This document shows, piece after piece, positions 7,063 through 49,670 of a DNA stretch of 64,000 nt. The translations under genes were made by a program, and so were the position numbers. Position 1 is the stretch's first letter, and every line of letters starts with the position of its first letter. Below the pieces are notes generated by a model. That model ran no database searches, had not been told where the DNA came from, and saw only the letters and a list, made by a program, of their open reading frames with translations. Source of the stretch: Escherichia coli O127:H6 str. E2348/69 (lineage in GTDB: Bacteria > Pseudomonadota > Gammaproteobacteria > Enterobacterales > Enterobacteriaceae); NCBI RefSeq assembly GCF_000026545.1, contig NC_011601.1. One strand, written 5' to 3'.

Positions 7063-7069
<7 letters not shown>

Positions 7070-7674
7070 CAGAACAACAACGTCGCGAACTGGACTGGGA
7101 AAAAACCGACGGACTGATGCCGGTGATTGTGCAACACGCGGTATCTGGCGAAGTGCTAATGCTGGGCTATATGAACCCGGAAGCTCTGGACAAAACCATC
7201 GAAAGCGGCAAAGTCACCTTCTTCTCGCGCACTAAACAGCGACTGTGGACCAAAGGCGAAACGTCGGGTAATTTCCTCAACGTAGTAAATATTGCGCCGG
7301 ACTGCGACAACGACACGTTACTGGTGCTGGCGAATCCCATCGGGCCAACCTGCCACAAAGGCACCAGCAGCTGCTTCGGCGATACCGCTCACCAGTGGCT
7401 GTTCCTGTATCAACTGGAACAACTGCTCGCGGAACGTAAATCCGCCGACCCGGAAACCTCCTACACCGCCAAACTGTATGCCAGCGGCACCAAACGCATT
7501 GCGCAGAAAGTGGGTGAAGAAGGCGTTGAAACCGCACTGGCAGCAACGGTACATGACCGCTTTGAGCTGACCAACGAGGCATCTGACTTGATGTATCACC
7601 TGCTGGTGTTGTTGCAGGATCAGGATCTGGATTTAACAACGGTAATTGAGAACCTGCGTAAACGGCATCAGTGA
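7063..7674 (+). CDS. hisI: Bifunctional phosphoribosyl-AMP cyclohydrolase / phosphoribosyl-ATP pyrophosphatase
   Basis: 203 aa [24 protein letters not shown]...; last gene of his operon. Confidence 0.95.
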
Positions 7675-7743
7675 GTGGCGTGCTGAGCAGGTGTGATGTT
7701 GTTGCCACACCCGGAGCCATTGCCCGATGCGCAAGCTTATCGT

Positions 7744-7802
7744 GCCTACACATTATCTCAACACACGTAGGCCGGATAAGATGCGCCAGCATCGCATCCG
7801 GC
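7744..7802. repeat. REP (repetitive extragenic palindrome) element
   Basis: GCCTACA...GTAGGCCGGATAAGATGCGCCAGCATCGCATCCGGC, typical enterobacterial REP sequence between hisI and wzzB. Confidence 0.8.
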
Positions 7803-7839
7803 AAAAAAAACGGGCATGGTGTCACCACCCTGCCCGTTT
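7803..7839 (-). terminator. Rho-independent terminator for wzzB (possibly bidirectional with the his operon)
   Basis: Hairpin CGGGCA-14 nt-TGCCCG; on the minus strand it is followed by an 8-nt U-run (A8 at 7803-7810 on plus strand); lies between convergent hisI and wzzB. Confidence 0.75.
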
Positions 7840-7859
7840 CTCTTAAATGCACAATAATA

Positions 7860-8840
7860 TTATTTCGCGTTGTAATTACGCAGCGCGTTACGCCCAAGCA
7901 CAATCCCCGCGCCAACCATGCCGCCCAGCAGCACAGCCAGAATCAAGGTAATTGCTTTCTTCGGGCTATCGCGACGAATAGGTAACGTCGGTTTCATTAC
8001 ATAGCGGTAAGCATGAATATCAAGTTTATCAACGTCAAGATTGTCGATATCCAGCAGGTTTTGACGAGTCTGATAGTAGTTTGATGAGAACACCAACGGA
8101 CGGGTCGCTTCGTGCTTAATCATCGACTCCAGCGCTTCGCTCCCCAAAAGGAACATAGTATCCTGGGTTACGTCCTGTGTCTGTTGAATCTGCGGCTTTG
8201 TCACCTGCGCCTGATTCGCATACTGCAACGCTTCCTGAATCTGACGGATACGCAGATCTTTCTGTTCTTGAGCGACCACTTCCTGCGTCTTCAGAGAATC
8301 CTGCAAGTTTTTCATTTGCAGCGCGATGTTGTCTTTCAGGTCTTGTTCCAGTTCTTCATTTACCCAGTCGTCAACTTGCTGGATATACTTCGCCAGCTGC
8401 TTCTGCGCACCTTCAGGTGTTTTACCGACATAAGAAACCGCTAAAGGTAATGACTGATTTTTAACGGTAGGCTCAATGGTCAGTTTTTCAGGTTCTTCCT
8501 GATTATCCAGCGTTTCTGCTAATGCAGAAAATGTCGTGCTGAAACGACCAATTAACATCGACTGGATCTCAGACACTTTCGGCGCTGCCGAACCATAAAT
8601 CACATTTATGGCATTGTTATAACCAGCGATTTGTCCCACATCAGGTTGAGTAACGATAGCTGTTGAAGTCCACTTTTCTTTGGCAACGGCCAGATACCCT
8701 ATAGCCAGGGCAATAGCCACAATGACAGAAATGATGATAGTCATCTTGCCGCGCCATAGTTGGACCAGTAAATCAATCAAATCAATCTGTTCCGGATCAT
8801 GGTTTTGCCCAGAAACATTATTATTTTCTACTCTCATCAT
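7860..8840 (-). CDS. wzzB: O-antigen chain length determinant (polysaccharide co-polymerase)
   Basis: ORF track 7860-8894; recognised Wzz sequence begins M(M)RVENNNVSGQNHDPEQIDL..., start taken at tandem ATGs 8837/8840; two TM segments flanking a periplasmic coiled-coil region. Confidence 0.9.
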   Translation of the reverse strand: MMRVENNNVSGQNHDPEQIDLIDLLVQLWRGKMTIIISVIVAIALAIGYLAVAKEKWTSTAIVTQPDVGQIAGYNNAINVIYGSAAPKVSEIQSMLIGRFSTTFSALAETLDNQEEPEKLTIEPTVKNQSLPLAVSYVGKTPEGAQKQLAKYIQQVDDWVNEELEQDLKDNIALQMKNLQDSLKTQEVVAQEQKDLRIRQIQEALQYANQAQVTKPQIQQTQDVTQDTMFLLGSEALESMIKHEATRPLVFSSNYYQTRQNLLDIDNLDVDKLDIHAYRYVMKPTLPIRRDSPKKAITLILAVLLGGMVGAGIVLGRNALRNYNAK

Positions 8841-24199: not shown

Positions 24200-24245
24200 G
24201 AAAAACACACGCTACCGCCCTTGGCTTAACAGTTACCAACTCACT
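24200..24245 (-). promoter_or_regulatory. JUMPstart region with ops element (RfaH-dependent antitermination) in O-antigen operon leader
   Basis: Plus-strand CACGCTACCGCC at 24208-24219 is the reverse complement of the ops consensus GGCGGTAGCGTG; lies between galF and the first O-antigen gene. Confidence 0.8.
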
Positions 24246-24479
24246 GAAAATGAATCATAGGTACTAAGCATTTAATACTTTTCACTATTTTCCAATTGTC
24301 TAACCAAACGAAGTCAGATACAAGGAAAATCTATGTCCGAGCGATACTTGCGGTAACTTATTGTTATTAAATACTTTAAATAAAAGACAGGAACATTCTT
24401 ATAATGTAAGCATCTCTGCTTTTGAATGTTCACTGCCGTTCTATTTTTATTCAATCCACCATATATGGATGATTAATTT

Positions 24480-35042: not shown

Positions 35043-35132
35043 GTCGTTACCCTTTTTCAGGCAATAGTTGGCCCTGACCGAAGCGGCCAATTTTGTTTTT
35101 GTCGTTATTTACACCGCGGTTTCGCATTCATT

Positions 35133-35233
<101 letters not shown>

Positions 35234-45612: not shown

Positions 45613-45716
45613 GCCGGATGCGGCGTGAGCGCCTTATCCGGCCTACGGAGCTGGTTTGCTTGCCGGATGCGGCGTGAAGGTAGGTCGGATAAGATGCGTC
45701 AGCATCGCATCCGACA
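45613..45716. repeat. BIME / REP cluster between wcaA and wzc
   Basis: GCCGGATGCGGCGTGAGCGCCTTATCCGGCCTAC followed by a second REP GTAGGTCGGATAAGATGCGTCAGCATCGCATCCGAC. Confidence 0.8.
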
Positions 45717-49658: not shown

Positions 49659-49670
49659 CACGCTACCGCC
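49659..49670 (-). promoter_or_regulatory. ops element in the colanic acid (cps) operon leader
   Basis: Plus-strand CACGCTACCGCC is the reverse complement of GGCGGTAGCGTG; about 180 nt upstream of the wza start on the transcribed strand. Confidence 0.8.

Follow-up and report, generated by a model that had tools for sequence, protein, structure and literature searches.

The window analysed here is a stretch of 64,000 nucleotides from Escherichia coli O127:H6 str. E2348/69 (contig NC_011601.1), and it carries the end of the his operon together with wzzB, the gene for the O-antigen chain-length determinant (Table 1). hisIE and wzzB converge on a spacer of 185 bp (7675-7859), an arrangement that had been proposed in a reading of the letters alone (the sequence-only reading) and that is borne out by the RefSeq annotation of E2348/69. 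An Rfam scan of the window placed the His leader at 471-594 on the plus strand, and ugd and gnd follow downstream of wzzB in the E2348/69 record. The window also holds two JUMPstart (ops-containing) elements above the Rfam gathering score, at 24208-24246 and 49659-49697, both on the minus strand; these are presumed to lie upstream of the O-antigen and colanic acid clusters.

Table 1. Features at the junction of hisIE and wzzB in the E2348/69 window.
Feature	Position	Strand	Basis or remark
hisIE, last gene of the his operon	7063-7674	+	ORF list and RefSeq annotation of E2348/69; stop TGA 7672-7674
Diverged REP-like hairpin, GGTGTG-N10-CACACC	7690-7711	+	Sequence
Degenerate, shortened REP (GCCCGATGCG..CTTATCGTGCCTAC), left half of a BIME-like pair	7722-7749	+	Sequence, dispersed copies
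Canonical REP (GCCGGATGCGATGCTGGCGCATCTTATCCGGCCTAC on the minus strand), abutting A8	7767-7802	-	Consensus regex, second hairpin of naRNA4, multi-copy
A8 on the plus strand, U8 tract of the wzzB-direction terminator	7803-7810	-	Sequence
Terminator hairpin, common to both strands	7811-7836	both	Folding, shuffles, conservation
Interrupted T-rich tail TTTCTCTT, predicted weak U tract of the his-direction terminator	7837-7844	+	Sequence, tail and d scores, comparison with K-12
wzzB (O-antigen chain-length determinant)	7860-8837	-	Stop codon 7860-7862, 23 nt from the hairpin

Between the two genes, CGGGCA (7811-7816) pairs with TGCCCG (7831-7836), with A8 on one side and TTT (7837-7839), followed by CTCTT to 7844, on the other. 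Direct reading of the letters confirmed these coordinates exactly as first given. The sequence-only reading described the outer stem correctly, but it missed that the 14 nt between the arms (TGGTGTCACCACCC, 7817-7830) pair among themselves, GGTG (7818-7821) with CACC (7826-7829) around a TCAC loop (7822-7825). A 1x1 mismatch, T7817/C7830 (U·C), separates the outer from the inner stem, and the whole is a 10-bp interrupted stem. Folding of a 56-nt region gave -20.5 kcal/mol (z = -4.7) for the plus-strand RNA and -28.0 kcal/mol (z = -5.5) for the minus-strand RNA, where the A and U runs lengthen the stem. The hairpin at 7811-7836 was not listed by a consensus terminator scan because, on our own reading of the scan's rules, the 14-nt outer loop exceeds the limit of 3-8 and the inner stem, at 4 pairs, is too short. 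This miss is a limit of the scan and no evidence against the hairpin, and it is the only observation that would favor a chance palindrome with flanking runs and no function. Such a palindrome fits poorly with the folding, as none of 200 dinucleotide shuffles was as stable on either strand.

The design of the element recurs well beyond E. coli. A single HisIE scan of species-representative genomes returned 80 loci, Salmonella being absent among these, and in 14 of them, not counting an E. coli representative, hisIE is followed immediately by a wzzB homologue in convergent orientation. At all 14, each in a different species of Enterobacterales, a single GC hairpin lies at the same site, with an A run of 4-8 upstream of it and a T run of 4-7 downstream. 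The stem sequences are unrelated: CCGGGC/GCCCGG in Citrobacter, Pseudescherichia, and Pseudocitrobacter, GACCGGG/CCCGGTC in Enterobacter cloacae, GCCGCC/GGCGGC in Rahnella, and elsewhere GGCCGC/GCGGCC and GGGCCGG/CCGGCCC. It is therefore the architecture that is conserved and not the sequence, a pattern that selection for a two-way intrinsic terminator, as opposed to a particular sequence, would predict.

Within E. coli, a 55-mer around the hairpin was found in 4,555 of 5,426 complete genomes, and in 952 of them it was at least 99% identical to the E2348/69 form. Among 17 sampled E. coli sequences, the core GGGCA-N-GGTG-TNAC-CACC-C-TGCCC was invariant in 16, while the flanks varied. The exception, strain A37, has a rearranged inner part with an apparent 10-nt duplication (CACCACCCTG twice) and keeps the outer stem CGGGCA/TGCCCG. 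The A run beside the hairpin ranges from A6 to A9, giving a wzzB-side U tract of 6 to 9 U, variation of the kind expected from homopolymer slippage, and the stem is followed by G, T, or A. All sampled variants have an interrupted his-side tail (TTTTTCTTT, GTTTTCTTT, ATTTTCTTT, GCTTTCTTT, and GTTTCTCTT, the last being the type of E2348/69 and ST131). In five strains (CFIAFB20190172, 571, PS3Tanimalfeces2, A37, and C8), the gene annotated upstream of the hairpin and wzzB is a 117-126 nt 3' fragment of hisIE, annotated as a pseudogene missing its N-terminus, which suggests that recombination of the O-antigen region carries the terminator and a remnant of hisI along with wzzB.

The orthologous hairpin of K-12 MG1655, at about 2097267-2097306, reads A7-C-GGGCAaGGTGtcacCACCcTGCCC-TTTTTCTTT and is identical in its core save for the mismatch base (A in K-12, T in E2348/69). 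K-12 differs in having A7 and in lacking the C-G closing pair, with T in place of G7836. The G at this position provides an extra stem pair and sets the wzzB-side U8 against the stem at the cost of one U on the his side; in K-12, accordingly, the his-side tail is better (TTTTTCTTT) and the wzzB side, with a G spacer and U7, slightly poorer. We scored both directions with a d'Aubenton-Carafa-type d score, which, combining a formula after d'Aubenton Carafa et al. 1990 with modern energy parameters, is a rough guide only: for the wzzB side it was +42.7 in E2348/69 (T score 5.14) and +12.2 in K-12, and for the his side +3.1 in E2348/69 (T score 3.27, borderline) and +21.7 in K-12 (T score 4.55).

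Published K-12 data place the 3' end of wzzB within this element. The Term-seq tables list a minus-strand 3' end at 2097270 on both the LB OD 0.4 and the M63 sheets (Adams et al. 2021, PMC7815308); the strings in these tables comprise 50 nt upstream, the 3' end nucleotide, and 10 nt downstream, as checked on the thrL rows. In NC_000913.3 coordinates, the end at 2097270 falls on the fourth U of the U7 tract, 5 nt beyond the stem. SMRT-Cappable-seq reported a transcript spanning b2027 (wzzB) alone, from a TSS at 2098331 to a TTS at 2097269 (PMC6131387, supplementary file 3), and the two 3' ends correspond to positions 7807 (2097270) and 7806 (2097269) of the window. Termination in the wzzB direction is thus demonstrated for the K-12 orthologue. 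The sequence-only reading had called the hairpin a strong intrinsic terminator for wzzB and had named Term-seq as the way to check it; the 10-bp GC-rich stem with its U8 and the 3' ends inside the orthologous U tract, from two independent data sets, uphold that view. Termination on this side in E2348/69 should be at least as good as in K-12, because of the extra closing pair C7811-G7836 and a U8 that abuts the stem directly. Together with the recurrence of the architecture at the same site in other species and the invariance of the core between variable flanks, these mapped ends rule out a chance palindrome.

Some read-through of wzzB transcription is nonetheless suggested by a Rho-dependent (bicyclomycin-sensitive) termination region at 2096632 on the K-12 minus strand, antisense to the hisF/hisI junction (PMC7815308). 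This position corresponds to about 7081 in the window, some 640 nt past the shared terminator, and hints that some polymerases escape even on the wzzB side. Close by in E2348/69, at 7124-7105 on the minus strand, is a terminator-like hairpin that has a TTTTT tail, and the hairpin or the Rho region may serve as a backstop for such read-through. Also in the K-12 Term-seq tables are abundant 3' ends within the wzzB open reading frame, 58 and 12 nt from its start (2098243 and 2098289, about 8779 and 8825 in the window, minus strand). The first has a Rho score of 0.60 ("No") and an intrinsic terminator score of 1.9, and these ends could reflect premature termination or processing.

The his direction is less straightforward. 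The E2348/69 tail UUUCUCUU retains three proximal U and 6 U in 8, and it is poorer than the K-12 tail UUUUUCUUU. A tail of this composition behind a stable stem with an A tract on its 5' side falls within the range of working terminators. The earlier judgment that the hairpin is at best a weak terminator for hisI may be an overstatement. The asymmetry between the two directions is real at the level of the letters, and it is plausible that the his side of E2348/69 is weaker both than its wzzB side and than the K-12 his side; "weaker" is justified by a d score of about +3 as against +43 and +22, respectively.

How much of the his transcript ends at the hairpin bears on a rival reading, in which the hairpin terminates wzzB only, the his operon is without an effective intrinsic terminator, and his 3' ends arise from Rho action or polymerase collision in antisense wzzB and are then trimmed to the hairpin or the REPs. 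The interrupted tail and its low d score in E2348/69 would fit this reading, as would the interruption in all sampled E. coli variants, three others of which score below zero (the ETEC1701-type ATTTTCTTT, also found in L65 and GN06156, and the 571-type GCTTTCTTT), but most other species retain a full T run on the his side, and the E2348/69 tail itself is within the working range given above. No plus-strand (his) 3' end was called from hisL to beyond wzzB in the K-12 Term-seq and SMRT-Cappable-seq tables (PMC7815308, PMC6131387), although this may simply reflect peak-calling thresholds. For E. coli, it has been proposed that polymerase collision drives termination at hairpins that separate convergent genes (bioRxiv 10.1101/2022.10.23.513370). 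No Rho region antisense to wzzB is listed for K-12 (no wzzB entry in PMC7815308, supplementary file 2). On balance, we consider it unlikely, if not negligibly so, that the hairpin serves wzzB only. Based on sequence, on the comparative evidence, and on work from the 1980s, termination of his transcripts at the hairpin is predicted, and the hairpin with its A8 and T-rich runs is very probably a bidirectional (convergently functional) Rho-independent terminator common to the his operon and wzzB.

The spacer upstream of the hairpin also differs between strains. The K-12 spacer is shorter, at 95 bp, and lacks a BIME. K-12-type strains have only a single REP-like hairpin there: in E2348/69 the diverged GGTGTG-N10-CACACC lies where K-12, EC958, and other strains have CGGATGCG-N10-CGCATCCG, and by visual comparison it appears to be the counterpart of K-12's CGGATGCG...CGCATCCG. 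The pair at 7722-7802, formed by the degenerate and the canonical REP, is absent in K-12 and present in E. albertii. The sequence-only reading had placed a REP just upstream of the hairpin; 7767-7802 indeed matches the REP pattern (consensus halves, 2 substitutions allowed) on the minus strand, and the element is multi-copy, E. coli genomes having a median of 11 places homologous to 7721-7804, such as one at yahH. Its identity as a REP rests on consensus match and copy number since the NC_000913.3 annotation lists no REP features. The terminator hairpin itself is not a REP or BIME, as genomes generally carry its 55-mer at a single place (median 1, maximum 2). The full 185-bp spacer was present in 1,244 of the 5,426 genomes. 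Further canonical REPs lie in the window at 35133-35213, 45613-45715, 52114-52150, and 60571-60654, three of them as inverted (BIME-like) pairs, and one of these pairs is about 40 nt from an Rfam "algC RNA" match at 35047-35096 on the minus strand.

REP sequences are established stabilizers of upstream mRNA, and a contribution of the REP to his mRNA 3' ends, as raised in the sequence-only reading, is plausible. The E2348/69 arrangement resembles REP/BIME 3' stabilizers in having a canonical REP with a degenerate partner within the his 3' UTR, and differs in that a 3' structure is already supplied by the terminator hairpin downstream of the REPs, and in that K-12-type strains lack these REPs. 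The pair is a lineage-specific insertion into the his 3' UTR, and would most likely act only as an extra barrier to 3' exonucleases. The idea that the REP pair makes up for a weak his tail was set aside: in GN06156 the pair accompanies another tail, ATTTTCTTT, so the link is not strict, and it is confounded by phylogeny.

The proximity of REP and hairpin raises another possibility, namely that together they form a REP/BIME-derived RNA of the naRNA4 type and not primarily a terminator. The Rfam family naRNA4 (RF02564) is a REP-derived, nucleoid-associated noncoding RNA. Its full model matches 7770-7839 on the minus strand with both model hairpins filled, at 53.7 bits (E = 5e-8), which is below the gathering score of 59.5, and naRNA4 was accordingly absent from the gathering-threshold Rfam scan of the whole window. 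The alignment matches the REP half by sequence, whereas the terminator hairpin is matched by shape only (7 bp, internal loop, 4 bp, 4-nt loop). The hairpin's single place per genome as a rule, against multi-copy REPs, and its occurrence in K-12 and other species without this REP argue further against this reading. In addition, the mapped 3' end falls between the two hairpins, so they do not share one stable wzzB-side RNA. We rejected the assignment as a sub-threshold, REP-driven match to an essentially single-copy hairpin, and regard an naRNA4-type RNA here as highly improbable.

We can postulate how a terminator serving both genes would operate in E2348/69. On the minus strand, the 10-bp GC-rich hairpin followed by U8 would act as an efficient intrinsic terminator, and the short wzzB transcript would end about 50 nt past the stop codon. 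On the plus strand, RNA polymerase leaving hisIE would meet the same hairpin followed by UUUCUCUU and would still terminate, less efficiently than in K-12-type strains. Polymerases reading through from his would run antisense into wzzB, where Rho or oncoming polymerases may stop them, and the resulting RNA could be shortened as far as the hairpin and the REPs. A more specific proposal concerns the lineage of E2348/69 and ST131 (about 950 to 1,250 of the 5,426 genomes), where the his side may have decayed, through a T-to-G change giving an extra stem pair in favor of wzzB and an interrupted U tract, with his 3'-end formation moved to the inserted REP pair and Rho or collision acting downstream. 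If true, this would be a natural case of trading one direction of a bidirectional terminator against the other; we think it quite unlikely. More generally, the variation among strains (a stem base of G or T, an A run of A6 to A9, presence or absence of the REP pair) offers a possible natural allelic series for gauging how U-tract quality and stem length are traded between the two directions, which would be a small refinement and no new principle.

Several reviews of the his operon leave its distal terminator unmentioned, and the sequence-only reading did not recognize the hairpin as the classical bidirectional his terminator. A 1985 paper by Carlomagno, Riccio & Bruni (J Bacteriol 163:362) reportedly described the his terminator of Salmonella Typhimurium as a "Convergently functional, Rho-independent terminator." A second precedent is SEnd-seq, with which Ju et al. 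in 2019 are said to have found bidirectional terminators between convergent E. coli genes. Where they cite Carlomagno et al., later papers refer to the Salmonella element as bi-directional and use it as a strong terminator cassette. The E. coli element resembles it in locus, as both close the his operon opposite a convergent unit, and in design, one GC hairpin between an A run and a T run working in both directions; the likeness is one of locus and design. The E. coli element differs in its longer, interrupted stem and in a degraded T run on the his side. With the class defined by SEnd-seq and the collision model, the his/wzzB element shares a single hairpin between convergent genes, at which overlapping complementary 3' ends are expected. 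The collision-model class has been described as unlike intrinsic terminators (bioRxiv 10.1101/2022.10.23.513370), whereas the his/wzzB hairpin is a textbook intrinsic terminator at least toward wzzB. The shared terminator is thus already known in kind and at this locus, real but ordinary, and what is particular to E2348/69 is the predicted weaker his-side tail and the inserted REP pair. In an EPEC reference strain, it defines where two well-studied transcription units end, which means little beyond correct annotation, and it is also a clean example of a bidirectional intrinsic terminator whose predicted strengths in the two directions differ between E. coli lineages.
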